From Alphaproteobacteria bacterium (lineage in GTDB: Bacteria; Pseudomonadota; Alphaproteobacteria; CAAGCB01; CAG-977), in the NCBI GenBank assembly GCA_900768185.1, contig CAAGCB010000004.1, forward strand, positions 102,815-166,814: a DNA stretch of 64,000 bases. The letters are read 5' to 3'. A program made the translations under genes and the position numbers. The stretch's first letter is position 1. Every line of letters begins with the position of its first letter. Positions 1,058 to 25,585 of this stretch are shown here, in pieces. The notes beneath the pieces are model-generated. The model worked only from the letters and a program-made list of their open reading frames with translations. It was not told the origin of the DNA and ran no database searches.

Positions 1058-2704
1058 ATGAAATCGTTGTTGAAATGCGGCATTTTCGGTTGCGCTTTGC
1101 TGTATTCAATCCCGCCGGTCGCGTCAAACAGCGTCGGACAGAGCTTTGACGAATGGGTTGAGGAGTTTCGCCGCGAAGCTGTGGAGGACGGCGTTTCGGC
1201 GCAAATGTTGGATTATGCTTTTCGCGATTTGCAGCCTGTTCCGAAAGTTGTTCAATCCGATCGAAAACAGCCGGAGTTCCGTCGCGACTTTCAAACGTAT
1301 CTGGATAACGCCATCAACGGATCGCGCATCAGGCGAGCGCGGAATTTGTTGGAAAAACACGCGGAATTATTTAAAGAAATCGAAAAAAAATATCATGTTC
1401 CCGCCTATTATCTGGCGTCGTTTTGGGGCATGGAAACCGATTTCGGAAACGCGAAAGGCGATTTTTCGACTTTAAACGCTTTGGCGACTTTGGCGTACGA
1501 TACGCGCCGTCCCGCTTTTTTCAGAACCGAGCTGATGCACGCCGTTCATCTGGTGCAAAACGGCGTCCCCGTTGAAAAAATGCGGGGATCATGGGCGGGG
1601 GCGGGCGGTCATTTTCAGTTCATGCCGTCAACGTTCAGTCATTTTGGAACGGATTACGACAATGACGGTCAAATCGATTTGTGGGATAGTCTGCCCGACG
1701 CTTTGGCGTCCGCGGCGAATTATTTGTCGGCGGAGGGGTGGAAAAACGATGTCGGCTGGGGCAGGGAAGTTCTTTTGCCCAAAAAGTTCGACTGGAATAT
1801 GATTGAGCACCAAAAAACTCTGAAAGAATGGCTGGACGACGGCGTTTCTTTCGCCAACCCCGCCGATGTCAAAGAACCCCTGTCCACAATGGCGAAGCTG
1901 TTTTTGCCGGCGGGAATTCACGGTCCCGCGTTTTTGACATATTCCAATTTTGATGTGATTTTAAAATGGAACAAATCCGTTTTATACGCTATTGCCATCG
2001 GGCATTTGGCGGATAGAATCCAAGCCAAACCGCCTTTTTCGAAAAAATATTTTCAACGCGGGGCGATGTTCACGATGGAAAACGCGCAGGAAGTTCAGGA
2101 ATTGCTGGCGAAAATGGGATTGTACGAAGACGGGATCGACGGTTTTCTGGGGCGCAAAAGCCGCGAAGCCGTGCGAAAGTTTCAGAATTTGTACGGTCTG
2201 CCCGCCGACGGGTACGCCAACGCGTCTTTGTTGCATTTCATGCGGCTGGCGGTCGGGGGCGGGGAAAAACGCAAGGCTTTGACTTTTGATGAAATCACGG
2301 AATTACAGCGGATTTTGACGCAGGGATCGTATTACATAGGTCCCGTTGACGGCAAGCTGGGACGCGCGACGTTGGCGGGGATTGATTTGTTCAAAACGGT
2401 GTACGGCATTGAAGCCGACGGTGTGAACAGAACTTTGCTGGAAAAAATGCGCGTCCAGTTCGCCCGAGGCATGGAAAACGGCGAAATCGATCCGTTGGTC
2501 AAAGAACATATCAAACGGGAAGCCGAACGAAAAAAAGCTTTGGAAAAAGAACGCCGGAAAGCCGAACAGAATCGGCGCAAGCTATTGAAAAAACAAAAGA
2601 AAAATAAGAAAGAGAACAAAGCTGTCAAACACCGCGCCGTCAAAGTCGGAAAAAACGTTTCGAAAAAGACGAAAGTTTCAAAAAAATCGGCTTTGTCGCC
2701 TTGA
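1058..2704 (+). CDS. Lytic murein transglycosylase (MltB/SLT_2-like) with two peptidoglycan-binding repeats and a Lys-rich tail
   Basis: It has a signal peptide. The core is MltB-like (FWGMETDFG, GHFQFMPSTF, DLWDS). There are two PG_binding_1-like repeats (GIDGFLGRKSREAVRKFQ and GPVDGKLGRATLAGIDLFK). The last ~65 aa are about half K/R. Confidence 0.85.
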   Translation: MKSLLKCGIFGCALLYSIPPVASNSVGQSFDEWVEEFRREAVEDGVSAQMLDYAFRDLQPVPKVVQSDRKQPEFRRDFQTYLDNAINGSRIRRARNLLEKHAELFKEIEKKYHVPAYYLASFWGMETDFGNAKGDFSTLNALATLAYDTRRPAFFRTELMHAVHLVQNGVPVEKMRGSWAGAGGHFQFMPSTFSHFGTDYDNDGQIDLWDSLPDALASAANYLSAEGWKNDVGWGREVLLPKKFDWNMIEHQKTLKEWLDDGVSFANPADVKEPLSTMAKLFLPAGIHGPAFLTYSNFDVILKWNKSVLYAIAIGHLADRIQAKPPFSKKYFQRGAMFTMENAQEVQELLAKMGLYEDGIDGFLGRKSREAVRKFQNLYGLPADGYANASLLHFMRLAVGGGEKRKALTFDEITELQRILTQGSYYIGPVDGKLGRATLAGIDLFKTVYGIEADGVNRTLLEKMRVQFARGMENGEIDPLVKEHIKREAERKKALEKERRKAEQNRRKLLKKQKKNKKENKAVKHRAVKVGKNVSKKTKVSKKSALSP

Positions 2705-6836: not shown

Positions 6837-7618
6837 TGTTTTTCGCGGACAGCCACTGCCATTTGAATTATCCGGACTATTCCGAAACGGAACGGATCGA
6901 GATTGTCGAACGTGCCGAACAGTTGGGAATACAAAGATTTTTGACTGTTTCAACAAAAATGGACGATGTGCCGGAACTGATTGAAATGACGCGCAAAAAT
7001 CCGCACATTTTCGCTTCCGTCGGCGTCCACCCCGAATATGCGGCTGAACAGGGGGAGGGGGTTTCCGTTGAACAGATTTGCAAAGCGGCGCAAGATGCAA
7101 AAGTCGTTGCCATCGGAGAAGCGGGATTGGATTACCATTACGGTGCCGCCGAAACCCGCGCGGCGCAAAAATCGCTGTTTCGCAAACATTTGCAGGCGGC
7201 GAAACTGACCGGATTGCCGATTATCGTTCATACGCGTGAAGCCGAAGACGACACGATCGATCTGTTGCGTGAAGAACAGGACGGTACTTTGCGGGGCGTT
7301 TTGCATTGTTTTTCATCGCAGGGCAGGTTGGCGGAATTCGGATTGGATATCGGATTTTACATTTCCGCATCAGGCATCATCACATTTAAATCGGCGCAGT
7401 CTTTACGCGACACGTTTGAAAAAATTCCGATGGATCGTCTGTTGGTTGAAACAGATGCTCCGTATTTGGCGCCCGTTCCGTTTCGAGGACGGAAAAACGA
7501 GCCGTCTTATCTGATTAAAACGGCGGAAATGCTGGCGCAAATCAAAGGAACCGACCTGGATTTCCTGCGTCAAAAAACGACGGAAAACTTTTTCAGATTG
7601 TTTTCAAAGGCGTACTGA
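6836..7618 (+). CDS. tatD: TatD family metal-dependent hydrolase
   Basis: Motifs DSHCHL, GEAGLDYHY, VHTREA and ETDAPYL. The ATG overlaps the holB TGA (ATGA-type junction at 6834-6838). Confidence 0.9.
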   Translation: MFFADSHCHLNYPDYSETERIEIVERAEQLGIQRFLTVSTKMDDVPELIEMTRKNPHIFASVGVHPEYAAEQGEGVSVEQICKAAQDAKVVAIGEAGLDYHYGAAETRAAQKSLFRKHLQAAKLTGLPIIVHTREAEDDTIDLLREEQDGTLRGVLHCFSSQGRLAEFGLDIGFYISASGIITFKSAQSLRDTFEKIPMDRLLVETDAPYLAPVPFRGRKNEPSYLIKTAEMLAQIKGTDLDFLRQKTTENFFRLFSKAY

Positions 7619-7619: not shown

Positions 7620-8396
7620 ATGAAATTTCGAATTTTAGGTTGCGGATCGGCGGGCGGCGTTCCGATGATTTCAAAAGGGTGGGGAAAATGCGATCCGAAT
7701 AATCCGAAAAACCGTCGTTTAAGAACATCGCTGTTGTTGCAACATCATGATATGAATGTGTTATTTGACAGCGGTCCCGATTTGCGCGAACAATTATTGG
7801 CGGCTCAGATTAAATCGCTGGACGCCGTTTTATACACGCATGAACACGCCGATCACACGCACGGGATTGACGATTTGCGCGAAATTAACCGCGCCATGAT
7901 GAAAAGCGTTCCCGTCTACGCGAACTTTACGACGTTGAATTTGTTAAAAGAACGCTTCGGATACGTTTTTCGACCTGTAAATATCGATAAGGAACCGTTT
8001 TATCATCCGTGGCTGGAGCCGAACTTGGTTGTTCCCGGAGAATCTTTTTATATCAAAGATTTAAAAATCATTCCGTTTTCGCAGGATCATGAATGGACAA
8101 CCAGTTTGGGCTTCAGAATCGGAAATTTCGGGTATTCGACCGATGTCGTGCATTTGTATGAATCGGCTCTGTCTGTTTTAAAGGGGATTGACACTTGGGT
8201 CGTCGGGTGTCTGTCCGAAAAAGATCATCCGAGCCATGCGTCAATTCGGCAAGTTTTGGAATGGGTGGATATTATCCGACCGCGGCGAACGATTTTGACA
8301 CACATGTCCATCGGTTTGGATTATGACACGTTGCGCCGAAAGTTGCCCGACGGCATAGAACCGGGATATGACGGATTGGAATTTGAAGTCGCATAA
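7620..8396 (+). CDS. MBL-fold metallo-hydrolase (PhnP/GPP-like)
   Basis: HxHxDH motif (YTHEHADHTHG) plus downstream His/Asp ligands. It is the last gene of the + strand run. Confidence 0.85.
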   Translation: MKFRILGCGSAGGVPMISKGWGKCDPNNPKNRRLRTSLLLQHHDMNVLFDSGPDLREQLLAAQIKSLDAVLYTHEHADHTHGIDDLREINRAMMKSVPVYANFTTLNLLKERFGYVFRPVNIDKEPFYHPWLEPNLVVPGESFYIKDLKIIPFSQDHEWTTSLGFRIGNFGYSTDVVHLYESALSVLKGIDTWVVGCLSEKDHPSHASIRQVLEWVDIIRPRRTILTHMSIGLDYDTLRRKLPDGIEPGYDGLEFEVA

Positions 8397-8406
8397 ATTT
8401 TTACAG

Positions 8407-8442
8407 ACTCCGGCATCAAAAAAGAAGCCGGAGTTTTCTTTT
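8407..8442 (+). terminator. Intrinsic terminator after the MBL hydrolase gene
   Basis: Stem ACTCCGGC (8407-8414) / GCCGGAGT (8427-8434), followed by TTTCTTTT. Confidence 0.6.
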
Positions 8443-8503
8443 AAAGGCAGTTTTTTACAACTCTTTGAAAAAGAATGATTTTCCCAAAACGAATAACATT
8501 TTG

Positions 8504-8514
8504 TTATCCCTCTG
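8504..8514 (+). repeat. 11-nt exact repeat TTATCCCTCTG, copy 1 (left of dif)
   Basis: Identical to 8622-8632. The two copies bracket the dif site. Confidence 0.8.
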
Positions 8515-8528
8515 TCGCCTTACCCGTA

Positions 8529-8556
8529 TTTTAACATAATAAACATTATGCGACAA
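8529..8556 (-). other. dif, the XerC/XerD chromosome dimer resolution site
   Basis: The minus strand reads TTGTCGCATAA-TGTTTA-TTATGTTAAAA. This matches E. coli dif (GGTGCGCATAA-TGTATA-TTATGTTAAAT) at 22/28, with the XerD arm at 10/11. It lies in a convergent intergenic gap, and GGGNAGGG motifs are polar toward it. Confidence 0.8.
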
Positions 8557-8621
8557 TAGCATATAAATAAACAGTGCTGTTTCAGCGGCTATCTGCATGA
8601 TATAAAACGGTTTTCAAAAGT

Positions 8622-8632
8622 TTATCCCTCTG
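8622..8632 (+). repeat. 11-nt exact repeat TTATCCCTCTG, copy 2 (right of dif)
   Basis: Identical to 8504-8514. A related GTTATCCGAC lies at 8659-8668. Confidence 0.8.
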
Positions 8633-9028
8633 AAATCCGAACAGGTTTTTCAAGAGGTGTTATCCGACTTATGCCGATTTTGTGATTAACGGCTTTATGC
8701 GTTTCAAGAATCCTTTATTTTCAATCAGATGCGCCGTGATATTTTGATTAGAGAGATGCGAACGATTCCGGGCGAGCCGACTGTAAAAAAGTGTCGTCTG
8801 TAACGGCAAGGCGTTTAAACGGAAAGAAATCGGATCCGGAAAGAAAATGTATTTGCCTCCCCGCTTTGCCTTTTGCACAAAAATTTACCCGCGGGTTCTC
8901 TCTGCCCGACCAACGCGACGCGATGCGCGAATGAATTTCTATCGCTTGGTGGCTCCCTGTTCAACGGATATTTCCCTTTGACTTTGATTGCAAATCGCTC
9001 CCCGCCCCCGCCTTCCGGTTTCATATCA

Positions 9029-9073
9029 GCCGTTTGTCCCAAGCTTTCGGACACCGCATGCCGGCTTTTTTTT
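9029..9073 (+). terminator. Candidate + strand terminator with no assigned gene
   Basis: Interrupted hairpin GCCG(9029-32)..GTCC(9036-39)/GGAC(9049-52)..CGGC(9062-65), followed by T8 (9066-9073). The upstream gene already has its own terminator at 8407-8442. Confidence 0.35.
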
Positions 9074-9078
9074 CGCAT

Positions 9079-9113
9079 ACAAAAATCCTCCGCGACCGAA
9101 GCCGTGGAGGATT
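9079..9113 (-). terminator. Intrinsic terminator downstream of ppiB
   Basis: An 11-bp stem AATCCTCCGCG (9084-9094) / CGTGGAGGATT (9103-9113) with one G-U pair. On the minus strand it is followed by TTTTTG. Confidence 0.7.
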
Positions 9114-9202
9114 TATCAAGAGATTGCAGTTAAAGTCTGAAATTTAACACAACATAGTTACTATCGCATAACCCATCGTCTAAATCAAGTCAGACAAAGG
9201 TA

Positions 9203-9670
9203 TTATGCCAATTTCATCGAAATGATGCAATCCGGATCTTTAACCATGCCGTTGCCGCCCGTTCCCTTTTTGATTTTATCGACAAATTCCATACCCTTGA
9301 CGACTTTTCCCCAAACGGTGTATTGCTTATCCAGCCACGGGCAGTCGTCATAGCAAATGAAAAACTGGCTGTCGGCGCTGTGAATATCCATCGCGCGCGC
9401 CATGGAACAAGTACCGCGCACATGCGGTTCGTCGGAAAATTCAGCCCGCAACAGCATGCCGCTGCCGCCGCAACCGTCGCCGTCCGGATCGCCCGTTTGC
9501 GCCATAAAACCATCAATCACGCGATGAAACTTCAATCCGTCGTAAAATCCCTGTTTAACCAGTTCTTTAATTCTAGCGACATGTTTCGGCGCCAAATCGG
9601 GACGCATTTCTATTTCGACAACGCCGTCTTTCAATTCCAGCAAAAGTTTGTTGTTTTCCTTGTCTTTCAT
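9203..9670 (-). CDS. ppiB: Peptidyl-prolyl cis-trans isomerase, cyclophilin type
   Basis: Cyclophilin core FHRVIDGFMAQTGDP...FFICYDDCPWLDKQYTVWGKV. I prefer the ATG at 9670 (MKDKENN); the longer ORF would overlap coaD. Confidence 0.9.
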   Translation of the reverse strand: MKDKENNKLLLELKDGVVEIEMRPDLAPKHVARIKELVKQGFYDGLKFHRVIDGFMAQTGDPDGDGCGGSGMLLRAEFSDEPHVRGTCSMARAMDIHSADSQFFICYDDCPWLDKQYTVWGKVVKGMEFVDKIKKGTGGNGMVKDPDCIISMKLA

Positions 9671-9672
9671 TT

Positions 9673-10179
9673 TCAATGTTCCTTGCCATGCAAACATTTT
9701 ATCAGTTTTTCCGCAATTTCGGGGGTGACGAAAGTCGATATGTCGCCGCCCAGCTGACATATTTCCTTGACGAACACGGAAGAAACGAACTGATGTTTTT
9801 CGGACGCCATTAAAAAAACGGTTTCAATGTCTTCTTCCAAACGTCGGTTCATCACGCACATTTTAAATTCGTATTCGAAATCCGACACGGCGCGCAACCC
9901 GCGAAAAATCACTTGCGCTTTGTTTTCTTTGGCGAAATTCACCAAAAGCGTGTCAATCAGCGGTTTGACGACGATAACGCTTTTATCGCGGTACTTTTCA
10001 ACCGCCTGCTCTGTCATCGCCAGCCGGTCTTCAAGACTGAAAAGCGAATTTTTATGCTGATTGACGGCGACGCCGATAACCAGCTTGTCAACCAAGCCCG
10101 CCGCGCGTTCAACCAAATTCATGTGACCATAGGTAATCGGGTCGAACGTCCCCGGATAAACACCAATCCGCTCACGCAT
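9673..10179 (-). CDS. coaD: Pantetheine-phosphate adenylyltransferase
   Basis: [14 protein letters not shown] nucleotidyltransferase motif. Length is 168 aa. Confidence 0.92.
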
Positions 10180-12952
10180 CGGTGTTCTCCGTCATTTCTT
10201 TTGCGTCAATCGATTCCGCCGAATTTTCGCTTTCGGGCGCATCTTCGGCATTATCCGGTGTTTCAAGCGATTCCTCGTCATCGTAATCTTCGATACAAGT
10301 TGCGGAAACAACGTGTTCGGCATCGTTCAAGCGGAACATGATTACGCCCATCGTATTGCGTCCGGCGATGCGAACGTCTTTGATCGGCATGCGAATCAAC
10401 TTGCCGGCATCGGTCACAAGCATGACATGCGCCATATCGGTCACGGGGAACGAGGCGACGACACAGTCTTTGCGTTTTGTGTTGTCGATATTCGTGACGC
10501 CCTGCCCGCCGCGCCCCGTAATGCGGTATTCGTAGGCGGAAGTGCGCTTGCCGTAGCCGCTGTCGGTAACGGTCAGGATAAATTCCTCTTCTTCCTGCAT
10601 CTTTTTAAATTCATCGTCGGACAGCGTCAGCGTGGTGGACGATTCAATGTCGTCGGTTGTCGAACCGTCGTCGTTTTCATCGGAACGGCGCAAAGCTTTT
10701 GCCATTTTCAGATAGGCATACCGTTTTTCCATATCGGCTTCGGTATGGCGCAGAACGGACATTGAAATCACTTCGTCATTTGCGCCCAAGCGAATGCCGC
10801 GAACGCCCGTCGACGTGCGTCCCGAAAAAACACGAACTTCGGAAACGGGGAATCGAATGGATTTGCCCGCTTTCGCCGCCAACAAAACGTCCTGTTCGTC
10901 GGTGCAGATTTTGACATCGATCAAGGTGTCGCCTTCGTCCAGTTTCATTGCGATTTTACCGTTGGCTTTGACGTCAACGAAATCGGACAGTTTATTACGG
11001 CGGACGTTGCCTGAACGGGTCGCGAACATCACGTCCAGATTTTCGCATTCGGTTTCGTTTTCCGGCAGCTGCATAATCGTGGTAATGCGTTCGTCCTGTT
11101 TTAGCGGCAACAAATTGATCAAAGCTTTCCCCGTTGATTGCGGAGAACCGATCGGCAGGCGATAAACTTTCATTTTATAAACCAGTCCCGCGTTCGAGAA
11201 GAACAGAACCGGCGTGTGCGTGCTGGCGACAAACAGATTGGTGATGTAATCTTCTTCGTGCGTATTCATGCCCGTGCGACCTTTGCCGCCGCGTTTTTGC
11301 GCGCGATAGGCGGATAACGGAACGCGCTTGATGTAGCCCGTGTTTGTCACGGTCACGACCATGTCTTCGCGCTGAATCAGATCTTCGATATCGTGTTCGA
11401 ATTCGACTTCTTCAATCGTGGTGCGGCGCGGAGTGGCGAATTCCTCTTTCACGGCGATAAATTCGTCGCGCATAATGCCGTACAGCTTTTCACGCGAAGC
11501 CAAAATGGACAACAGTTCCTTGATCAAGGAACCCAATTCTCGCAATTCGTTGTGAATCTTGTCGCGTTCCAAGCCCGTCAAACGATGCAAACGCAAATCC
11601 AAAATCGCGTCAGCCTGCTTGTCGGACAGCATGCACATGCCGTCGACGGCTTCGTATTCGGGATCGTCGATCAAATCGATCAGCGGCACGATTTCGCGCG
11701 CGTTCCAAGACCGTTTCATCAACTCTTCTTTAGCGGCGGGACGGTTCGGCGCTTTGCGAATCAATTCAATGACGGGATCGAGGTTTTCGACAGCCAAAGC
11801 CAAACCGACCAACAAATGCGCGCGGTCACGGGCTTTGCCCAAATCAAAAATCGTTCTGCGGCGAATGACTTCTTCACGGAAAGAAATGAACGCGGCAATC
11901 ATTTCGCGCAGGTTCATCAGTTGCGGACGACCGGCGTTCAGCGCAATCATATTCGCGCCGAAACTGGTCTGCAACGCCGTATAGCGGAACAGTTGGTTCA
12001 AAATGATTTCGGGGTGGAAATCGCGTTTGACTTCAATCACGACGCGAATTCCCTGACGATCCGTTTCGTCGCGGACGTCGGCGATGCCTTCGATCACCTT
12101 GTCGCGCACCAGTTCCGCGATGCGGGAAATCGTGGCGGCTTTGTTCACCTGATAAGGAATTTCCGTCACGATGATCGCCCAGCGGTCTTTGCGGATTTCC
12201 TCGATGTGCGTTTTGGCGCGCATCACGATGGATCCCCTGCCCGTCAGTTCGGTCGAACGCGATCCGGATCGCCCTAAAATCAAGCCGCCCGTCGGAAAAT
12301 CGGGTCCCGGAACAATGGACAGCAGTTCTTCGTCCGTAACGTCGGGATTGTCAACCATGGCAATCGCGGCATCAATGACTTCGCCGGGATTGTGGGGCGG
12401 AATGTTTGTCGCCATGCCGACGGCGATGCCCCCCGCTCCGTTAACAAGAATATTCGGAAAACGCGCGGGCAAAACGACCGGTTCCCGTACCGTTTCGTCA
12501 TAGTTCGGCATAAAGTTGACGGTATCTTTGTCAATATCGTCCAACAGATTGTGCGATGCCGGAGCCAAACGCGCTTCGGTGTAACGCATGGCGGCGGGAG
12601 GATCGCCGTCAATGGAACCGAAATTCCCCTGCGACGAAATCAGCGGAACGCTCATGGAAAAATCCTGCGCCATACGCACCATGGCGTCGTAAATCGCCGC
12701 GTCGCCGTGGGGGTGGTATTTCCCCATCACGTCACCGACGATGCGGGCGGATTTTCTGAACGGTTTGTTATAATCGTAACCGCTTTCGTGCATCGCGTAC
12801 AAGATGCGGCGATGCACGGGTTTCAGCCCGTCGCGAACATCGGGCAAGGCGCGCGACACGATAACGCTCATCGCATAGTCCAGATAGGACCGTCTCATTT
12901 CTTCTTCGATACCGACAACGACGGTAGAAGAATCGTTCACAGTATTTTCCAC
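10172..12952 (-). CDS. gyrA: DNA gyrase subunit A
   Basis: [26 protein letters not shown] and the catalytic Tyr context [10 protein letters not shown]. It has a beta-pinwheel C-terminal domain and an acidic tail. It overlaps coaD by 8 nt. Confidence 0.97.
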
Positions 12953-12999
12953 AGCGTCAATCCTGTTTAAATTGAAGGAAAGTTTTTAAAATCAGCCGA

Positions 13000-13476
13000 T
13001 CAGAACGGAATTTCGTCGTCAAAACCGCCGTTATCGGCAGGTTTCGTATCCCAACCGGACGAAGCGGACGGCGCGTCAAAGCCCGCGGAAGCTCCGCCGA
13101 AAGAGGAATCGGACGAAGAACCGCCGCGGCTGTCCAACAAGGTCATTTCACCGCTGTAATTTCCCAAAACGACTTCGGTCGTGTATTTTTCGACGCCGTT
13201 TCCGTCAGTGTATTTGCGGGTTTGAAGCGATCCTTCGACATACAGTTTCGTCCCCTTTTTCACATAGCGTTCGGCAATTCCCGCCAATCCGGCGTTAAAG
13301 ATGACGACGCGGTGCCATTCCGTTTTTTCTTTGCGTTCCCCGCTGTTTTTATCTTTCCATGTGTCGGACGTGGCGATCGTCAGGTTGACGATTTTTCTGC
13401 CGTCCGCCGATTGACGGATTTCGGGGTCTTTGCCGACGTTGCCGATTAAGATGACCTTGTTAACGCTTCCAGCCAT
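13000..13476 (-). CDS. ssb: Single-stranded DNA-binding protein
   Basis: OB-fold N-terminus ([15 protein letters not shown]), a Gly/Ser-rich linker and the acidic tip DDEIPF. Confidence 0.95.
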
Positions 13477-13772
13477 AATGATATCCTATTCTATTAAGAG
13501 GGTCGAAAAGTTATCCCTTTTTACACCGATTGCCCGCGAAAGGAAAGCTTTTCTTTTCACACCGCCTGCCAAAAAGCATTTTTTTATGTTTTTCAACATG
13601 ATTTAAGCTGTTTTGAAATGCTTGCTTTACCATGTTAAAGTGGGATAAGCGCTTTCGGCGGCGACTGTTCCCTCTTGTCATATAAACAAAGTCAATTTTA
13701 CCTTGACTTTTCGGCGGCGAAGATTTTTTATACACCCTCAGTTAGGTTTAAAGCTTTCAGAAAGGAAAAATA

Positions 13773-15854
13773 ATGTCTTTAAGCACATTCTTTAACCCCC
13801 GTTCCGTCGCCGTAGTCGGTGTTTCCGCCGATGAATCGAAGCTGGGCGCGGTCGTTTTCAAAAACTTGATCGAAGCCGGATTTGAAGGAACGCTGTACGG
13901 TGTCAACCCGAAACTGGCGGGACAGGAATTGAAAGGCAAAAAATGTTTTGCTTCCGTCCGCGACATTCCCGAACCCGTCGATCTGGTCGTCTTGCTGGTT
14001 CCCGCGCGTTTCTGCGAAGCCGCCGTTGACGACGCGATCGCGAACGGCGCGAAGAATGTCAGCATCATCACCGCGGGTTTCGGCGAAGCGGGACACAAGG
14101 ATTTGGAAATGAGCATCGCCAAAAAATGTTTGGACGCGGGCATCAACCTGCTGGGACCGAACTGCTTGGGACATATTTCCACGTTTGACAAACTGAACGC
14201 CAGCTTTGCGCCGTGCTTCCCCCTGCAGGGTAACGTCGCCTTTATTTCGCAGTCGGGCGCGTACTGCTCGGCGATTTTGGACTGGGCGGAAGAAAAAGGC
14301 ATCGGTTTTTCGCACTTCATTTCCATCGGCAACAAAGCCGACTTGAACGAAGCGTCCCTGCTGGAAGCCATTCAGCACGACGAAAACACAAAAGCGTTCG
14401 TTTTCTATCTGGAAGGATTGAAAAAGGGTCAGGAATTCCTGCGCGTTTTGAAAGAAGTCAGCAAAACGAAACCCTGCGTCATCATGGAACCGGGCAAATC
14501 CTCCAAAGCGCAGGCGGCGAGCTTGTCCCACACGGGGTCGTTGGCTCCGAACTATCGCGTTTTGGAAATCGCTTTGCAGCGCAGCGGCGCGATTCAGGTC
14601 TATACGACGCGTGAACTGTTCGGCGCGCTGGAATTGTTGCAGCACGTCAACCACACGGACTTTTCGGGTTCCGTCGGCATTCTGACGAACGCGGGCGGCG
14701 TCGGTGTTCTGTCTTCCGACCTGTGCGAAGAAGCGCATTTGGATTTGGCGCGTCCGTCCGAAGCCACGATTGAAAAACTGCGCGCGGTTCTGACGGCGGA
14801 AGCGTCCGTCGGCAATCCGATTGACGTTGTCGGCGACGCAAAAGCCGACCGTTATGAAAACGCTCTGCGCGTTTTGTGCGAATCCGGCGAATACAAGAAC
14901 ATCATCGTTCTGTTGACCCCGCAGATGTCCACGGAACCCACGGAAACCGCCGAAGCCGTCGTCAAATTGGCGAAAGAATACAAAAACGTCAACATCTTCT
15001 GTTCGTTCATCGGCGGTCAGCGCGTCCGCGAAGCCGTCAACCTGCTGAAAGCGGCGAACGTCTTGGCGTACGACTACCCGACGGACTGCATCCGTTTGCT
15101 GGGATTGATGAAAGCGCAGATGGCGTTCAAGGGCATGCCCGAAGTCAAAGCCGAATTGCGCGAAGTCCCCGCCGAAATCCGCGAAGACGTCAAAAAAGCG
15201 GTCGCCGACGGTCTGGCCTCCCTGCCCCAGTCCACGATGAACAAAATCATGGACCATTACGGCATCGACTATCCGAAATGCGGCAACTTCACCGACAAAG
15301 CGGAAGCTCTGGCTTTCTGCAAAAAGCTGTTCCCCGCTCCCGTCGTGTTGAAACTGTCCGCTCCGGACGCTTTGCATAAAACGGAAATGAAGGGTATTTA
15401 CCTGAACATTGACGACGAAGCGAAGTTCAACGCCGCGTTTGACGAACTGACTGCGACGATTGCCAAATTCCAGCTGAAGAACGCCAGCGTTCTGATTCAG
15501 GAAATGATTGTCAAAGCCACCGAAACGATTATCGGCGTGAATTCCGACAAAAACTTCGGTCGCGTGATGATTTTCGGCACGGGCGGCATCTATACGGAAG
15601 TTATGCGCGACACCACGATGCGCATTTTGCCCGCGAACGACTTTGACGCGATGATCAAAGAAACCAAAGTCGGCACGATTTTGAACGGCGTCCGCGGCGA
15701 AGAACCCAAAGCGGTAGGACCTTTGGCGGAAACGCTGAAGAAAGTTCAGGAATTGGTTTTGGAAATCCCCGAAATCAAATCCATCGACGGCAACCCCGTT
15801 TTGGTCACCAAAGACCGCGCGGTTGTCGTGGACTTCAAGATGTTGCTGAAATAA
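13773..15854 (+). CDS. Acetate--CoA ligase (ADP-forming), fused alpha/beta (ACD family)
   Basis: N-terminal CoA-binding fold (NPRSVAVVGVS), a succinyl-CoA-synthetase-like ligase domain (ITAGFGE, NCLG) and a C-terminal ATP-grasp half. Length is 693 aa. Confidence 0.8.
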   Translation: MSLSTFFNPRSVAVVGVSADESKLGAVVFKNLIEAGFEGTLYGVNPKLAGQELKGKKCFASVRDIPEPVDLVVLLVPARFCEAAVDDAIANGAKNVSIITAGFGEAGHKDLEMSIAKKCLDAGINLLGPNCLGHISTFDKLNASFAPCFPLQGNVAFISQSGAYCSAILDWAEEKGIGFSHFISIGNKADLNEASLLEAIQHDENTKAFVFYLEGLKKGQEFLRVLKEVSKTKPCVIMEPGKSSKAQAASLSHTGSLAPNYRVLEIALQRSGAIQVYTTRELFGALELLQHVNHTDFSGSVGILTNAGGVGVLSSDLCEEAHLDLARPSEATIEKLRAVLTAEASVGNPIDVVGDAKADRYENALRVLCESGEYKNIIVLLTPQMSTEPTETAEAVVKLAKEYKNVNIFCSFIGGQRVREAVNLLKAANVLAYDYPTDCIRLLGLMKAQMAFKGMPEVKAELREVPAEIREDVKKAVADGLASLPQSTMNKIMDHYGIDYPKCGNFTDKAEALAFCKKLFPAPVVLKLSAPDALHKTEMKGIYLNIDDEAKFNAAFDELTATIAKFQLKNASVLIQEMIVKATETIIGVNSDKNFGRVMIFGTGGIYTEVMRDTTMRILPANDFDAMIKETKVGTILNGVRGEEPKAVGPLAETLKKVQELVLEIPEIKSIDGNPVLVTKDRAVVVDFKMLLK

Positions 15855-15871
15855 TCAGCACAAACGATTGC

Positions 15872-15907
15872 AAAAGAGCCGCTCAACCGAGCGGCTCTTT
15901 TTTTTTG
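15872..15907 (+). terminator. Strong intrinsic terminator after the ACD gene
   Basis: Stem AAAAGAGCCGCTC / GAGCGGCTCTTTT with loop AACC, followed by a T-run to 15907. Confidence 0.85.
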
Positions 15908-15985
15908 CAGAAGCTGAATTATCCAAAAATTCAGTTGTCGCAAAATTTGCGACAACCGCCGCCGACGGCAAAACCAGACGCAGGT

Positions 15986-16108
15986 TCCGTTTTTCATCAT
16001 CAAGCTGTCGAAAAAGCGACGAGCGAGTATAAAAAATATCAAGCAAAAACGCTCAGTTCCGTTGAACGCGATTTCCTGTCCGCTTTAAAAGCGTTACCGA
16101 AAAAATAA
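15986..16108 (+). pseudogene. 3' remnant resembling the C-terminus of RhuM-family proteins
   Basis: The translation ...SVFHHQAVEKATSEYKKYQAKTLSSVERDFLSALKALPKK* matches my memory of RhuM C-termini (..A.EKA..EY.KY......E.DF......L.K). There is no ATG and no N-terminal domain; only about 40 codons remain. This is recognition from memory and was not aligned. Confidence 0.4.
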
Positions 16109-16121
16109 ATACTGCCTAATA

Positions 16122-16147
16122 CAAAAGAGCCGCTTAAAAGCGGATCT
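16122..16147 (-). terminator. Hairpin downstream of the zinc-ribbon/DUF805 gene
   Basis: Stem AGAGCCGC / GCGGATCT with one mismatch. It shares the 13-mer CAAAAGAGCCGCT with the terminator at 15871-15883. Confidence 0.4.
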
Positions 16148-16154
16148 TTCTGTA

Positions 16155-16904
16155 TTAATTATTTGATAATTTTGTTATAATAGCAGTCATAATTGCCGCT
16201 GCAATTATAAGTAACGCACATCCGTCTTTAATCGAAAATACTTCTGCATCCGCCTGTTTTTCAGCGTCTTCCAGATTTTCTTTATTTTCGTTCTTTTCAT
16301 CAATAAACTCATCTTCTTCCTGTCTAAATTTTTCTCCCGGGAGAAACATAACATAGGCTGTGTAGAAAATAAAAACAATAATTCCGATCAATTTTATTCC
16401 ATCTTCATCTCCATCCATTAAGATACCGCAAGTTGGCGGAATCAGCATTACCCAAAGAGAAACGCCTAAGTCTTTCAATCTTTTTACATACGAAGCGCAT
16501 AACAACCAAACAAAGGCAATAAACCATGGAATTACAATTATTTCAGATAACAGCTTGGAAATTCCGTAAAGAAAAACAGGAATTCCAGATGAAAGATAAA
16601 TAATCAAACGCGCATAAAAAAATTCCAATCTGGAATATGTTCCATTGAATAAAAAATATTCTTTAATGTCTTTTGAAAAGAATTTTTTGCACATTTTCTG
16701 AAAACTGACGTGTCCGTCAACGCAGTTTGAATAATCGTCATTTTCAGAATAAACAGAATTTTCAACACAATATTCTGTATTTTCTTCATTTGAAACAGCT
16801 TTGGCGATATCCTCTTCGTCATCTATAAAATTGACAGGATTTCCGCAATACATACAGAATTTTGCATTGTTTTGAATCCGCTTCCCGCAGTTTGAACAAA
16901 ACAC
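16155..16904 (-). CDS. Zinc-ribbon + DUF805-like polytopic membrane protein
   Basis: N-terminal CxxC..CxxC (FCSNCGK...FCMYCGN), then an acidic linker. DUF805-like signatures follow (FNGTYSRLEFFYARL and VKRLKDLGVSLWVML), with several hydrophobic helices. The start is GTG at 16904 behind AGAGGA. GC content is very low. Confidence 0.7.
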   Translation of the reverse strand: MFCSNCGKRIQNNAKFCMYCGNPVNFIDDEEDIAKAVSNEENTEYCVENSVYSENDDYSNCVDGHVSFQKMCKKFFSKDIKEYFLFNGTYSRLEFFYARLIIYLSSGIPVFLYGISKLLSEIIVIPWFIAFVWLLCASYVKRLKDLGVSLWVMLIPPTCGILMDGDEDGIKLIGIIVFIFYTAYVMFLPGEKFRQEEDEFIDEKNENKENLEDAEKQADAEVFSIKDGCALLIIAAAIMTAIITKLSNN

Positions 16905-16905
16905 C

Positions 16906-17499
16906 TTATTTATCCTCTTTATTGCTTATCAGTTTAATTTCTTCATTTTTGGGCAGAGCTTTCTTCTCTTTTTCATCGGGCGTCATTGCCGCACATAGTG
17001 TAGTTGCCGCTGTTATCGCTTGCGAAGCGGTTATTCCGGCCTGCATTCCCCCGCCCAAAGCCGCCAAGCCGCTGGTCGTCGCCGCCGCTCCTGCCGTTCC
17101 CGTTGCAGACAGCGCAGATGTCAACCCGGAAGCCGCCACATTCCCAATGGCAAACCCCACAGCGGCTTTGCCAATAACTTTTCCGTATTTTTCGGCTGCA
17201 GTTATTGTTTCGGGTGAAGCATCGCACAATTCGCATACTTTTTTTGTCACCCCACCCGTTATATCGCCCGCTAAGTTAACACCACCATCAATCACATCTT
17301 CCGCAAAATTAGATACAGGAACAGAAACATCATTTATCGCATCAGATATCTGATTACTGAATTTTTGAAGAGATTTTTTATTCTCCGGATTGTCTATGAA
17401 GTCCGCGGTTACATAACACACAGCTTTTTGTGCCGCATCAACAGTGATACAGGACAATTTGATAAGATTTTTTGTTAATTTTCCGAACGTAAACGCCAT
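16906..17499 (-). CDS. Hypothetical protein with a ~60-aa Gly/Ala/Thr-rich glycine-zipper-like hydrophobic segment
   Basis: ATG at 17499. The zipper segment is GKAAVGFAIGNVAASGLTSALSATGTAGAAATTSGLAALGGGMQAGITASQAITAATT, followed by a Lys/Glu tail. There is no signal peptide. Its stop codon lies 1 nt from the next gene's GTG start. Confidence 0.6.
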   Translation of the reverse strand: MAFTFGKLTKNLIKLSCITVDAAQKAVCYVTADFIDNPENKKSLQKFSNQISDAINDVSVPVSNFAEDVIDGGVNLAGDITGGVTKKVCELCDASPETITAAEKYGKVIGKAAVGFAIGNVAASGLTSALSATGTAGAAATTSGLAALGGGMQAGITASQAITAATTLCAAMTPDEKEKKALPKNEEIKLISNKEDK

Positions 17500-17512
17500 A
17501 ACATACCCCTTT

Positions 17513-17543
17513 GCAAAAAAAAGACCGCCTTTTAAAAGCGGCG
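17513..17543 (-). terminator. Hairpin + T8 on the minus strand directly upstream of the 16906-17499 gene
   Basis: Stem CCGC (17525-28) / GCGG (17538-41) plus flanking A-T pairs. On the minus strand it is followed by T8 (17522-17515). The stem is short, so confidence is moderate. Confidence 0.45.
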
Positions 17544-18021
17544 CGGGGAGTTCGAAAAATCAACTGTTGCGGTGATCCTTTTGACCTTTAAAGCATACAG
17601 GGTACGCTTCTGAACATACGCCAAAAGCTCCCCGAACCCATAAGGAAATCGGGGATACAGTTCCGTTTTGCGAATACGCGAAACGGTTTCGATGCCATAT
17701 CATAGCACCGGCAACAGTCAGAGCTTTTCGACGGCTCCGCGCCTCTTTTTCAGGCACTGGCGCGCAAACGTTCATTTGCACGCGTATAATCAGGATACGT
17801 TTTTATCCGCTCAAATAGCAAGAAGTTTTTTATCACTTCGGCGACACGGCGATCCGGAACAGCCGCCGTCTTTCACCGGCATCGCTTTACCGCGGCGTTG
17901 ATAACGGCATACGCGCCGCAAAAGTAATCCGTTGTTCCTTGTCGATACGGTTTTATTTTTCACCTGTAAATTTGTTTTAAAATATTGTATTTTCTTTTTA
18001 TCGTTTTGAAAGGAAATCGGC

Positions 18022-18426
18022 ATGAACTCGCCAGAAATCAAAGAAATTTTTCAAAATTATCCGATCGGTCTGCTACTGCAAGGGCAGCCCGACGTTAAGA
18101 AAATAGAAAAAAGCCTGAACAAAGGACATTGTTTTGCCGCTTTTGACGGTGACGGCATTGTCGGCGTCTATGTCCTGCGGAATATGAAAGACGGTTCGGT
18201 GGAATTATCCGATATCGCCGTTGTCGAAAGTGCGCGCGGCAAAGGTTTGGGCAAAGCGTTGCTGAACGACGCCATAACGCGCGCCCGTGCAGACGGATAC
18301 GACGGACTAAACGCTACGATTAAAATCGACGCCGACGCGCGGATTTTTTTTGAAATAAACGGTTTTTCCGTTGATGCGGACGCGGAAACGCCGGACGGCT
18401 TCACGCGCTTATCCCTGCCCTTGTGA
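18022..18426 (+). CDS. GNAT family N-acetyltransferase
   Basis: Acetyl-CoA binding motif ARGKGLGKALL. Length is 134 aa. Confidence 0.85.
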   Translation: MNSPEIKEIFQNYPIGLLLQGQPDVKKIEKSLNKGHCFAAFDGDGIVGVYVLRNMKDGSVELSDIAVVESARGKGLGKALLNDAITRARADGYDGLNATIKIDADARIFFEINGFSVDADAETPDGFTRLSLPL

Positions 18427-19017
18427 CTATTCGGGATAGCCGACGACCTGCGACACGATCACCTGCTTGCCGTCGGACAGGTTCAGTGCTTTTGTCATTT
18501 CGTCGTTGTCCTTTCCGCCGCGCACGACGTTATTCAATCCGAACGCGGCGCAGAATAATCCGACGTTTTGGTACAGCGATCCCGCGTGCATTCCGGCGAA
18601 TCTTCCGTTTTGCGCGACGTACAGCAGCGTCACGGGCGCCTTTTTCGCAAACGGCTGAGTGTTGATGTTTCGCAAATCCTTATCTGAAACGGGTAGCAAC
18701 GCGTTTTCTTTGGCGTCATACAAAAACACGCCGTCCTTGTTCAAAACGTAGATGTCCATATCCTGTTTGTTCATCGCGGTCGGCGCGGTGCGCTTGCCGT
18801 CCTGACGGTTGACGCCGAACGCCGCCCACAGCATATCCGCCAGAATTTGCGGTTCGACGGATTTGTCGGCGAAAGAGCGCGTTGATTTCCGCGCATTCAA
18901 CGCGTCCATCAGCGGCATGCCGCCCGTTGTCCGCGGCGCGGGAAGCTTGATCGTTTCAGCGGCGAAAACGGATTGCGCCGATAGCATCAAAGACAAAACG
19001 GCTAGGGACGATTTCAT
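18427..19017 (-). CDS. Nitroreductase-family protein with N-terminal signal peptide
   Basis: Signal peptide MKSSLAVLSLMLSAQSVFAAE, followed by a nitroreductase-like core (RKSTRSF...LADMLWAAFGVNR...). Confidence 0.75.
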   Translation of the reverse strand: MKSSLAVLSLMLSAQSVFAAETIKLPAPRTTGGMPLMDALNARKSTRSFADKSVEPQILADMLWAAFGVNRQDGKRTAPTAMNKQDMDIYVLNKDGVFLYDAKENALLPVSDKDLRNINTQPFAKKAPVTLLYVAQNGRFAGMHAGSLYQNVGLFCAAFGLNNVVRGGKDNDEMTKALNLSDGKQVIVSQVVGYPE

Positions 19018-19038
19018 AGCGTTATCCTTTTGAAAAAA

Positions 19039-21627
19039 TTAAAATTCGCGTTCGTTGCGTAAAAAATCGGGAATGTCGGCGGCGGGCATCGGGCGGCTGA
19101 CGTAGTATCCCTGAATGATGTCGCACCCCTGCTTTTTCAGCAATTCCAGTTGTTCTTTGGTTTCGACGCCTTCGGAAACGATTTCCAATCCCAAGGTATG
19201 CCCCAGGTTGATAATGGCTTGAGCGATTTCGGCATCGTCGTAGTTATGCGTCATATCGCGCACAAACGACTGATCGATTTTCAAGCGGTCGACGGCAAAG
19301 CGTTTCAAATAGCTTAGCGACGAATAGCCCGTTCCGAAATCGTCAATCGCCAGCTTGATGCCGACGCGGGACAAGCGCGACAAAATGTTATCCGCTTTGC
19401 GCGCGTCCTGCATAACGACGCTTTCGGTCAATTCCAGTTCCAGACGGTCGGGTGAAACGCCGCTGTCGGACAGGATTTTTTCGATTGTTCCTGCCAGATC
19501 TTCCTGCTGGAACTGAATGGCGGACAGATTGACCGCGATCGAAATTTTCGGCAATCCCATTTCGTCCCATTGTTTCAAATGGCGCAAGGCTTCTTTTAAA
19601 ATCCAGTCGCCCAAAGGAATAATCAGCCCCGTATCTTCGGCGATCGGAATGAAACGCGCGGGCGACACGATGCCGCGCGTCGGGTGTATCCAGCGCACCA
19701 AAGCTTCCGCCGCGTTGATTTTTCCCGTATGAACGTTCAGCTGCGGCTGGAAATAAAGCGCAAATTCGTTTTGTACCAGCGCTTTGCGTAAATCGCGTTC
19801 CAAAGCCAGACGGTCTTCGGTTTCATCGTTCATTTCCTGCGAAAAGAAAAAATAGCTGTTCGGCGCGGAATTGGCGGCGGTACGCAAAGCCATGTCGGCG
19901 TAGTTCACCAGTTTGTCGGGATCGGTGTCGTCGTCCGGAAAAATGGAAATACCGACGTTTGCGCCGACGTTGACTTCCGTTTCGCCCAAAAATATCGGCG
20001 CCAAAATGGTTTCAATCATCGTCCGCGCGTTCATTGCCGCCGTTTCGGTGTTGGGAATGTCCTCAATCACCATCGTAAATTCGTCCCCGCCGATACGGGC
20101 GACAAAGTCGTTCGCCGACACCTGTTTTAACAGACGTTCGGCGACGATCTTTAATAAATCGTCCCCCGCCGCGTGTCCCAGCGTGTCGTTGATGCGGTTG
20201 AAATTTGTTAAATCGGCGAACAGAACGGCGACTTTTTTCTTGCGCGCCGCCGACCGTTTCAAAATCTGGCGCAACTGTTCGTGGAACAAACGACGGTTCG
20301 GCAATCCCGTCAGCTGGTCGTAATTCGCCAGATGCAAAATCTGTCCTTCCGCGTTTTTGCGCTTTGTCACGTCGTCGCGCACGATCACACAATACGTCAG
20401 ATGCCCGTCGGCGTCCAAAATCGGCGAAATACGCTCGTCCACGGTGTACAGAGAACCGGATTTGTGCCGTTCGATGATTTCGCCGTGCCAGCATTTTCCC
20501 GTATGCAGGACGTTCCACATTTCCGTGTAAAACGCTTCGTTTTGCTGTTCGGTGCGCCGATGCACCAGTTTGTGTTCCAAAATTTCTTCGCGTCTGTAAC
20601 CGCTTTGCGCGCAAAAGGCGTTGTTCACCCACAGCGCGATGCCCCGTTCGTCCGTAATGACAAAGGCGTTCGGCGACATTTCCAACGCGGCGCGCTGCAA
20701 CCGCATGCTTTGTTGATCGGCGGCGAACTGCATCGCCATGGCGGCGCGCAGGGAAAAAGTTTCCAGCCGCTGAATGGTTGCGTTGTCCAGCCGCCCCAGT
20801 CCCGAATGGATTTCCAAAACGCCGTCGACGCCATCATGCGTCACCAGCGGGAAAGTGACAATCTGACGGGTGTGTTCGCGCCCGTCGGCATCAACGGTTT
20901 TGTCATCAGTCAATTCGATGACGCAGGTTCTTTTGGTTCGGATCGCCTGCCCCGTCGGACCGAATTTTTCCGTCAAGTCGTCCCAGCGAATGGGATTGGA
21001 CGGGAAACCGGCGGACGCTTTACCCGCGACGGCGCGCACGTCGACCGTGCCGTCTTTTTCCTTTTTACCGATCCAGACCAGCGGGCAGCCTATCAATTCA
21101 ACGATTTTTTCGCACAAAAAAGCGCAAAACCGTTCCGGCGGCTGTCCGCGCAGAACGCGGCGCAAAGTCGCATGCAGAACGGAATCCATGCTTTCCGACA
21201 TTTGGCGTTTGGAAATATCGCGCAACAGACAAACGTAACCGTCGTTACACGGGGTTAGGACGATTTCGACCGGAAATTCCGTGTCGTCCTTTCGCAAACC
21301 GACGATTTCCGCCGTATTTCCGATCGCGTTTTCCCCGCGCAAAGCCGTCAGTGCGCCGAAAGCCGCGGCGGGACGTTCCCCGTCGGGCAGAACCGTTTGA
21401 ACGCGCTTGCCGATCAATTCGTCGTTATTGTAGCCGAACAGACGATGAACCGAAGAATTCGCCGCGACAATCTTTCCGTCGGAATCGATTTTTAAAACGG
21501 CACTCAGGTTGTTTTTTAACAGCGCGGCCACAGTAGTGTTCCTTATCAGACTGCATGTAGAAGTCGTTGCGCCTTTTATAGCGTGACGCGGGATAAAAAT
21601 CAAAGAAAAATCGGAATCCGCCCTCAA
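19039..21627 (-). CDS. PAS-GAF-PAS-GGDEF-EAL signalling protein (c-di-GMP synthase/phosphodiesterase)
   Basis: Intact GGDEF motif (RIGGDEFTMV) and EAL motif (AEALVRW), plus the downstream EAL motifs DDFGTGYSSL and EGVET. PAS-like and GAF-like regions lie upstream. The true start may be an internal GTG near 21530. Confidence 0.88.
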   Translation of the reverse strand: MRADSDFSLIFIPRHAIKGATTSTCSLIRNTTVAALLKNNLSAVLKIDSDGKIVAANSSVHRLFGYNNDELIGKRVQTVLPDGERPAAAFGALTALRGENAIGNTAEIVGLRKDDTEFPVEIVLTPCNDGYVCLLRDISKRQMSESMDSVLHATLRRVLRGQPPERFCAFLCEKIVELIGCPLVWIGKKEKDGTVDVRAVAGKASAGFPSNPIRWDDLTEKFGPTGQAIRTKRTCVIELTDDKTVDADGREHTRQIVTFPLVTHDGVDGVLEIHSGLGRLDNATIQRLETFSLRAAMAMQFAADQQSMRLQRAALEMSPNAFVITDERGIALWVNNAFCAQSGYRREEILEHKLVHRRTEQQNEAFYTEMWNVLHTGKCWHGEIIERHKSGSLYTVDERISPILDADGHLTYCVIVRDDVTKRKNAEGQILHLANYDQLTGLPNRRLFHEQLRQILKRSAARKKKVAVLFADLTNFNRINDTLGHAAGDDLLKIVAERLLKQVSANDFVARIGGDEFTMVIEDIPNTETAAMNARTMIETILAPIFLGETEVNVGANVGISIFPDDDTDPDKLVNYADMALRTAANSAPNSYFFFSQEMNDETEDRLALERDLRKALVQNEFALYFQPQLNVHTGKINAAEALVRWIHPTRGIVSPARFIPIAEDTGLIIPLGDWILKEALRHLKQWDEMGLPKISIAVNLSAIQFQQEDLAGTIEKILSDSGVSPDRLELELTESVVMQDARKADNILSRLSRVGIKLAIDDFGTGYSSLSYLKRFAVDRLKIDQSFVRDMTHNYDDAEIAQAIINLGHTLGLEIVSEGVETKEQLELLKKQGCDIIQGYYVSRPMPAADIPDFLRNEREF

Positions 21628-21722
21628 ATTTTGCCTTGTAAAGGTTTTATCCGTTGATTTTTGTCAAACGGCGGGTTAAAAAAATAGCAAAAGGTTCACA
21701 TAACTTTCTAAGGATTTGCGGC

Positions 21723-22511
21723 ATGTCTGCTTTGGTTGGGATTATTTTGGGCTGGGGGATTGTTTTTACCTCCATTCGCTTGGCGACCCCCGATATGTTG
21801 TCGTTTTGGGACTTGAACAGTTTTTTGCTGGTCATCATCGGTCCGTATTTTTCGATGCTGATGGCGTATTCGGGCAAGGACGTCAACTCCGCCAACAAAA
21901 AATGGCTGGGCGCGTTTAAAAAGGACGTTCCGATCCCGTATAAAGACGAAGTCGGGCGGTTCGTGCGCTGGGCGTACATCACGCAAAAAAACGGATTGCA
22001 GGGACTGGAAAACGACGCCATGTCGACCGTCGGCGAAAACGATCCTTTTTTAAAGTACGGCGTCGAACTGGTGATTTCGGGCTATACGGGAACGGAAATT
22101 CGCGAAATTTTAAAGGAATCCGCCTTCAGCACTTATCAGCGCGACGGCAAGCCGTCTGAAATTTTAACAAACATCGGGGGTTACGCTCCCGCATTCGGTA
22201 TGGCGGGAACCCTGATCGGACTGGTCGTCATGCTGGGCAATATGGGCGCCGATCCCGCCGCAATCGGATCCGGCATGGCGGTGGCGTTGATTACGACGTT
22301 CTACGGCGTTATGTCAGCCCGTCTGATTTATCTGCCCATCGGCGTGAAACTGGGGGCGAAAAACGACGAAACGCTGTTTCGCAACCTGCTGGTGACGGAA
22401 AGTCTTGTCCTGCTGGCGGAACGCAAAAGCCCCCGTTACATTCAGGACAAGCTGAACGCGTTTTTGGATCCGTCCCAACATTTCCTGATCGACCGCGACA
22501 TGCAACGCTGA
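21723..22511 (+). CDS. motA: Flagellar-type stator protein MotA/PomA family
   Basis: Four-TM MotA/TolQ/ExbB-type channel (GYAPAFGMAGTLIGLV, ALITTFYGV). I prefer the ATG at 21723. Confidence 0.8.
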   Translation: MSALVGIILGWGIVFTSIRLATPDMLSFWDLNSFLLVIIGPYFSMLMAYSGKDVNSANKKWLGAFKKDVPIPYKDEVGRFVRWAYITQKNGLQGLENDAMSTVGENDPFLKYGVELVISGYTGTEIREILKESAFSTYQRDGKPSEILTNIGGYAPAFGMAGTLIGLVVMLGNMGADPAAIGSGMAVALITTFYGVMSARLIYLPIGVKLGAKNDETLFRNLLVTESLVLLAERKSPRYIQDKLNAFLDPSQHFLIDRDMQR

Positions 22512-25583: not shown

Positions 25584-25585
25584 GG

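Follow-up and report, generated by a model that had tools for sequence, protein, structure and literature searches.

Does the short, partially palindromic sequence between two convergent gene runs of an uncultured gut alphaproteobacterium mark the place where the dimers of its chromosome are resolved and its replication ends? The sequence lies in the left part of the window, by which we mean the whole stretch of 64,000 nucleotides analyzed here, and it resembles the dif site of Escherichia coli. We consider it likely, with a probability of roughly 0.88, that positions 8529-8556 are the chromosomal dif at the replication terminus, and that they also serve as an attachment site for microviruses. 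The natural recombination products found at this site in related strains are the most direct evidence for its function as dif.

A dif-like 28-mer between convergent gene runs

Read directly from the window on the minus strand, from 8556 to 8529, the site is TTGTCGCATAA-TGTTTA-TTATGTTAAAA. Compared with E. coli dif (GGTGCGCATAA-TGTATA-TTATGTTAAAT) it is identical at 22 of 28 positions, which are distributed as 7 of 11 in the XerC arm, 5 of 6 in the center and 10 of 11 in the XerD arm. The four mismatches in the XerC arm are all outermost (positions 1-4), and the single mismatch in the XerD arm is its last base. The outer TTGT of the XerC arm is clade-specific and common to five related MAGs. 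A sequence-only reading of the window had described a near-canonical dif with these same counts, lying in a gap of about 0.8 kb between a plus strand gene run and a minus strand run at 9203-13476. Our recount agrees exactly, and the gene context is as it was described.

The 28-mer has the architecture of a proteobacterial dif, with two partially palindromic arms of 11 bp around a center of 6 bp, and with perfect inner arms. Its placement in non-coding DNA and its low G+C content are as expected of dif. Carnoy & Roten recognize dif by a non-coding position, a low G+C content and the vicinity of the cumulative skew peak (PMC2731167). The site presented here shows all three features, with 21% G+C in the 28-mer versus 52% in the window, and with a skew peak that is local, being defined over 82 kb.

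The 23-nt core, in which one position was left free, is found as a single copy in the window, compared with a mean of 0.00 copies in 100 dinucleotide-preserving shuffles. No second site with eight or fewer mismatches is present elsewhere in the window. Furthermore, the 28-mer is identical in seven conspecific contigs in which the site is empty.

The site sits in an 806-bp non-coding spacer between the convergent runs (Table 1). The left run, on the plus strand, includes mltB-like, rlpA, dacA-like, tmk, holB and tatD genes, and its last member, encoding an MBL-fold hydrolase, ends at 8396. Because the genes of the region are chromosomal housekeeping genes (gyrA, parC, holB, tmk, metG, mfd, recG), the site is not a plasmid resolution site. 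The spacer was searched for phage remnants, RNA families and terminators. Neither a phage remnant nor an Rfam family was found in its 806 bp, and the window represents an empty attachment site. The one structural match in the spacer is a weak terminator-like hairpin for the PPIase gene. In the region between -9.6 kb and +72.6 kb, which includes the window, no xerC, xerD or ftsK gene was found; the presence of all three is implied indirectly by prophages which lack an integrase and have recombined at dif.

Table 1. Features of the dif region and of the corresponding prophage and phage sites. Positions refer to the window, unless a contig is named.
Feature	Position	Strand	Remarks
dif site, 28 bp	8529..8556	-	TTGTCGCATAA-TGTTTA-TTATGTTAAAA; unique in the window, absent from shuffles
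XerC-binding arm TTGTCGCATAA	8546..8556	-	assigned by homology to E. coli dif; inner 7 nt as in E. coli
Central hexamer TGTTTA, strand-exchange region	8540..8545	-	same in host dif and phage attP
XerD-binding arm TTATGTTAAAA	8529..8539	-	10/11 identical to E. coli
17-bp core common to phage attP, plus strand TTAACATAATAAACATT	8531..8547	.	homology blocks overlap here; doubled at prophage ends in lysogens
Non-coding spacer	8397..9202	.	42% G+C; contains the cumulative G-C maximum at 8,855
MBL-fold hydrolase gene, last in left run	7620..8396	+	
PPIase, coaD, gyrA, ssb: first genes of right run	9203..13476	-	
KOPS-type motif GGGCAGGG	1759..1766	+	points right, towards dif
KOPS-type motif GGGGAGGG	7052..7059	+	last left of dif; points right
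KOPS-type motif GGGCAGGG	10500..10507	-	first right of dif; points left
Eleven more GGGNAGGG motifs	12235..61201	-	all point left, towards dif
Starts of those eleven GGGNAGGG motifs	12235, 15220, 18413, 24463, 25258, 29618, 31111, 33068, 45597, 54068, 61194	-	
Prophage/dif region	L004 10911-15509; L006 8501-13092; L003 about 10914-11106 (N gap)		corresponds to window 8531-8547
attP / hybrid sites	L055 1642-1669; L057 6762-6789 and 11338-11365; L060 6752-6779 and 11300-11327		

Several features elsewhere in the window are worth recording. A strain-variable cassette of low G+C (41-44%) occupies 16155-18426. In the window and in contig L005 it consists of a DUF805/zinc-ribbon gene and an ORF of 197 aa, and in L001, L007 and other contigs its place is taken by DUF6994 and TRL-domain genes. 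The ORF of 1,138 aa at 57041-60457 on the plus strand has no Pfam match and runs antisense to a pyruvate:ferredoxin oxidoreductase gene (57023-60835, minus strand); it is most likely a shadow ORF and not a gene. Also without a Pfam match are two predicted proteins encoded on the minus strand, one of 866 aa (42254-44854) and one of 437 aa (48504-49817), the latter inside a Bat-like operon (MoxR/VWA/DUF58) at 48.5-55 kb. An N6-adenine methyltransferase of the CcrM type, which ends in a RAMA domain (61583-62674, plus strand), fits an alphaproteobacterial host, and so does the alpha-type model matched by holB.

Replication terminus signature

The window alone extends 8.5 kb to the left of dif. For the skew analysis it was joined with conspecific contigs (98.8% identical) into a composite of 82.3 kb, from -9,662 to +72,674, of which 18 kb lie left of dif. 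In this composite, the cumulative G-C curve reaches its maximum at 8,855, approximately 300 bp from dif. A two-segment division places the best change-point at 8,854, and the approximate support interval, 8,266-8,896, includes the 28-mer. On the plus strand, G exceeds C left of dif and C exceeds G right of it, and because of this direction the switch points to converging forks and not to an origin.

All real genes of the left flank are on the plus strand, and the influence of gene orientation was therefore controlled by comparing plus strand genes only. Left of dif these genes (n=15) have a GC skew of +0.083, and right of it (n=12) one of +0.008 (Mann-Whitney p=2.4e-4); the corresponding values of the GC3 skew are +0.029 and -0.116 (p=5.6e-3). 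Since the difference persists among plus strand genes alone, the skew switch reflects more than gene orientation.

A second signal comes from GGGNAGGG, the KOPS consensus of E. coli. All 18 copies in the 82-kb composite point at dif, five on the plus strand to its left and 13 on the minus strand to its right, and the strand switch falls between 7,052 and 10,500. In an unbiased polarity scan, GGGCAGGG was the most polarised 8-mer. The window has 14 copies of the KOPS motif, 4.6-fold more than in dinucleotide shuffles (3.0 +/- 1.6); relative to this null, a mononucleotide expectation (about 11) understated the enrichment. Part of the polarity is G-skew, as composition-matched G-rich 8-mers are 68-77% polar, and given this background the probability of finding 17 of 17 copies polar is approximately 0.002-0.01, not 1e-5. 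Several of the right-hand copies lie inside plus strand genes, for example those at 15220 and 61194. In other host lineages, 20 of 20 copies point at the respective dif, including where dif is flipped or has different flanks, with positions that are partly homologous. The KOPS motifs converge on dif, and they do so above the G-skew background.

The sequence-only reading had proposed the replication terminus for this locus and an extremum of the skew at about 8.5 kb of the window. The maximum and the change-point agree with the latter within the composite, and the skew switch, the orientation-controlled genes and the KOPS convergence support the former locally, over the 82 kb examined. We infer that the site lies at the replication terminus, or segregation endpoint, of the entire replicon, and that this replicon has no second dif.

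Conservation of the site

An exact scan with one genome per species retrieved the 23-nt core at 29 loci in diverse Pseudomonadota, all of them dif-shaped and variable at positions 1-4. For 28 of these 29 hits the assembly has a single copy of the core; the exception is Candidatus Pantoea persica, with copies on two contigs. In two complete Acidithiobacillus chromosomes it is placed at 50.4% and 53.9% of the record, counted from a record start that may not be oriC.

Closer to the window, five related gut and rumen alphaproteobacterial MAGs carry TTGTCGCATAA-TGTTTA-TTATGTTAAA followed by A, T or C, beside the same MBL-hydrolase or PPIase-coaD-gyrA genes, and the exact core is found once in each related MAG assembly. 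Among named genomes, the closest are MAGs titled 'Alphaproteobacteria bacterium UBA6347/UBA6324' or gut/rumen 'uncultured Alphaproteobacteria', with 71-91% DNA identity. Identical proteins are encoded on numerous contigs from human-gut metagenomes (Hadza, Nepal and others), which reach lengths of 348 kb. Among strains and species, variation of the 28-mer is confined to positions 1-4 and 27-28, which is the pattern that Carnoy & Roten described for dif (PMC2731167).

The surroundings of the site are less stable. Related species differ in how dif is oriented with respect to the same flanking genes, as seen by comparing 8495-8694 of the window with 2936-3134 of L013, and also in L027, L023, L057 and L060. 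In these relatives a segment of approximately 200 bp around dif is inverted; the orientation of the prophage follows, and KOPS convergence is unaffected. In a related MAG (L012, 505-6829), about 6.3 kb including autotransporter-like sequence separate dif from the MBL-hydrolase gene, and in L060 the same place is taken by ppk1/ppk2 and a phosphatase gene. DNA adjacent to dif is a hotspot of variable content.

Microvirus prophages at the site

Two conspecific contigs, L004 and L006, are lysogens, with an additional 4.57 kb in the same spacer, inserted inside the 28-mer. The homology blocks at the two sides of the insert overlap by 17 bp (window 8531-8547), and in L004 this 17-mer is repeated directly and exactly at a distance of 4,571 bp. 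At the gyrA-side junction, the sequence is TTGTCGCATAA-TGTTTA-TTATGTTAAGA in L004, or ends in AAAT in L006, that is, the host XerC arm followed by a XerD arm with the outermost base of the phage. The other junction, AAGTTGTTGAA-TGTTTA-TTATGTTAAAA, joins the XerC arm of the phage to the XerD arm and the flank of the host. In the lysogens, the XerC arm thus stays with the gyrA-side flank and the XerD arm with the MBL-hydrolase-side flank, and the outermost base of the XerD arm marks the crossover. Because the junctions are hybrid, the crossover must lie within positions 10-26 of the 28-mer, around the central hexamer, and the arms were exchanged reciprocally. An identical central region and directionality are characteristic of exchange by tyrosine recombinases such as Xer. 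The products found in these genomes are natural, and not experimental, evidence that site-specific recombination takes place at the central region of dif.

The insert encodes a microvirus Rep, a major capsid protein of 516 aa, a DNA pilot protein, an Arg-rich protein of 41 aa and small ORFs. No integrase is encoded in its 4.57 kb. The prophages of L004 and L006 are 87-93% identical to each other, and the capsid protein is at most 49% identical to that of any deposited phage. A capsid protein search revealed close relatives of two kinds, some on contigs of phage size and others embedded in long bacterial contigs. One of the former, L055, comprises 4,559 nt without host DNA and corresponds to a circularly permuted prophage. 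The only dif-like site that it contains, ATGTCGTTGAT-TGTTTA-TTATGTTAAGC, is located exactly at the join of the prophage ends and is the predicted attP. In IMG/VR, the exact attP pattern had no match, and the capsid relatives from this collection reach only 29-43% identity and come without a dif-like site.

The same arrangement recurs in other hosts. In a second host species, for which L013 represents the empty site, the lysogens L057-L059 show the same junction logic, and both dif and prophage are flipped relative to the flanks. The dif of a third host (L060/L061) reads TTGTCGCATAA-TGTATA-TTATGTGAGAA, and the halves contributed by the phage show the matching changes, TGTATA and TTATGTGAG. The prophages of L004, L006, L057 and L060 are all bordered by reciprocal hybrid sites. 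In all five attP versions the XerC arm has diverged (inner CATAA to TTGAA, TTGAT, TGTAA or TGGAA), and the center and the XerD arm are intact. As judged from these sequences, the site acts as attB for dif-integrating microviruses without an integrase, which are found both integrated and free.

Proposed function and alternative explanations

By homology to E. coli dif, the left arm would be bound by XerC and the right arm by XerD, and the enzymes acting at the site are presumably the XerC, XerD and FtsK of the host. During cell division, the sister copies of the 28-mer would be brought together. FtsK, steered to dif by the converging GGGNAGGG motifs, would activate XerD for dimer resolution. 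Bound to TTATGTTAAAA and TTGTCGCATAA, respectively, XerD and XerC would then exchange strands across TGTTTA and resolve chromosome dimers. The microviruses of 4.6 kb, having no integrase, would use the same site by way of the host Xer machinery.

A real Xer target could also lie away from the place where the forks meet, if the switch in skew and KOPS marked the breakpoint of an inversion or a place where the genes change orientation. Over the 82 kb examined, the left flank has only plus strand genes, and skew and orientation are partly confounded; in addition, the flipped dif segment of some relatives is a local rearrangement. We nevertheless regard this explanation as unlikely, because the skew difference holds among plus strand genes alone and the polarity of the right-side KOPS copies, some of which are inside plus strand genes, is independent of the gene strand. 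Furthermore, dif and the switch are found together in at least three host lineages, whose flanks are partly different, and in surveyed proteobacteria dif is close to the skew peak (Carnoy & Roten, PMC2731167). It could be argued as well that the phages, which demonstrably use the site, point to a pseudo-dif, a secondary attachment site kept by mobile elements, with the true dimer-resolution site elsewhere on the replicon. This is very unlikely. In strains with an empty site the canonical 28-mer is complete and has no element in its vicinity, the site is conserved across species at the point of KOPS convergence, the exact core is present once per related MAG assembly, and the Xer-exploiting elements that have been reviewed target genuine dif (PMC5357621).

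The insertions would have no bearing on dif function if they were made by the Rep (HUH) endonuclease of the phage, its only encoded DNA-processing enzyme, instead of the host Xer. This is highly improbable, given that attP itself is dif-shaped, that the crossover falls inside the 17-bp core at the central hexamer with reciprocally exchanged arms, that the center and XerD arm of attP co-vary with the host dif, and that the orientation of the prophage tracks the polarity of dif. Moreover, the same arrangement is XerC-dependent in E. coli (PMC7062461). The chance that the 28-mer is a fortuitous AT-rich palindrome or a mere promoter-like element is practically nil. A promoter scan reported a sigma-70-like match, TTGTCG-17-TAAAAT, over the same bases, but found fewer sites than expected by chance (1 versus 1.9), and an accidental origin is ruled out by the shuffles, which never gave the site, by the recombination junctions and by the exact conservation of the site across phyla. 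A chromosomal dif at the terminus, shared with microviruses, is thus the explanation that we retain.

Relevance for host and phages

As a dif, the site is ordinary in kind, and its association with phages has precedent. The added value lies in the unusually strong natural evidence of function and in a host-resolved family of gut microviruses. For the host, dif anchors the terminus of the chromosome of an uncultured gut alphaproteobacterium, which aids in orienting and closing MAGs and in measuring replication from coverage. For the phages, the insertions are a rare link, at the level of sequence, between human-gut microviruses and their host. The three host-phage pairs, in which the center and the XerD arm of attP track the host dif, form a natural experiment on Xer specificity.

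We tentatively raise the possibility, at clearly less than even odds, that these phages form a previously undescribed temperate microvirus lineage of uncultured gut Alphaproteobacteria, with an attP that mirrors those of the characterized Xer-exploiting elements we checked and whose center and XerD arm co-evolve with the host dif. If this is true, a clade of gut microviruses would receive a direct host assignment, and the mirror-image attP would mean that Xer is hijacked in a distinct manner. This might be a XerD-first, FtsK-dependent integration, with lysogeny stabilized by poor XerC binding at the hybrid site. The diverged XerC arm of attP, if mechanistically relevant, would add a class to the ways in which mobile elements exploit XerCD.

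Comparison with known systems

The site shares with the dif/XerC-XerD/FtsK-KOPS system of E. coli the layout of 11+6+11 nt, an identical inner XerC arm and 10 of 11 bases of the XerD arm, as well as the non-coding, AT-rich position at a skew switch on which GGGNAGGG converges. The two differ in the outer XerC arm (GGTG in E. coli versus TTGT here), in the center (TGTATA versus TGTTTA) and in the last base (T versus A). Furthermore, the host here is an uncultured gut alphaproteobacterium, for which we infer the Xer and FtsK enzymes. With the alphaproteobacterial dif sites of Carnoy & Roten 2009, for example that of Agrobacterium (TAATCGCATAAGATATATTATGGAACTT), it has in common the inner XerC CGCATAA and the inner XerD TTATG, and also the intergenic position near the cumulative skew maximum, here that of the 82-kb composite (PMC2731167). 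Its XerD arm, TTATGTTAAA, is however of the gamma/beta-proteobacterial type, whereas the type quoted for Rhizobiales is TTATGGAAC (PMC2731167). The exact 23-nt core is common to Acidithiobacillus and various gammaproteobacteria.

In complete E. coli genomes, in many of which homology breaks off precisely at dif on the flank opposite to hipA, two dif-adjacent inserts were considered as gokushovirus lysogens and rejected, as they are integrase elements and not microviruses. In E. coli BW25113 (NZ_CP009273.1; L062, L063), the dif coordinate printed in PMC7062461, 3,046,436-3,046,463, falls inside ubiH; we located the 28-mer at 1,585,007-1,585,034, adjoining hipA.

The closest parallel for the phages are the enterogokushovirus prophages of Kirchberger & Ochman 2020 (PMC7062461). 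Like the phages described here, they have no integrase, measure about 4.5 kb, reside at dif with 17 bp of identity at their bounds, regenerate the bacterial dif and occur as free circular forms. Experiments in E. coli have demonstrated that their integration at dif depends on XerC/XerD (PMC7062461). The sites flanking the E. coli lysogen are AGTGCGCATAA-TGTATA-TTATGTTAAAT and GGTGCGCATAA-TGTATA-TTTAGTTTAAC (PMC7062461, Supplementary file 1), from which it follows that the XerC arm of the enterogokushovirus attP is preserved almost perfectly and that its XerD arm has diverged. In contrast, the phages of the gut Alphaproteobacteria have a diverged XerC arm (inner CAT to TTG, TGG or TGT), with the center and the XerD arm intact. 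A literature search, which was not exhaustive, retrieved no description of an element with a XerC-diverged attP, the arms being assigned by homology.

Exploitation of the host XerCD through a dif-like attP is also known from TLCphi, VGJphi and CTXphi of Vibrio cholerae and from the gonococcal genetic island, collectively IMEX, and the IMEX prophages are likewise flanked by one good and one hybrid site (PMC5357621). The details differ among these elements. In TLCphi and the gonococcal island it is the XerD arm that is divergent, and here the XerC arm; the center of VGJphi differs on the XerD side, while here it is identical; and CTXphi uses a folded single-stranded attP built from two sites (PMC5357621), whereas the microviruses described here carry one attP.
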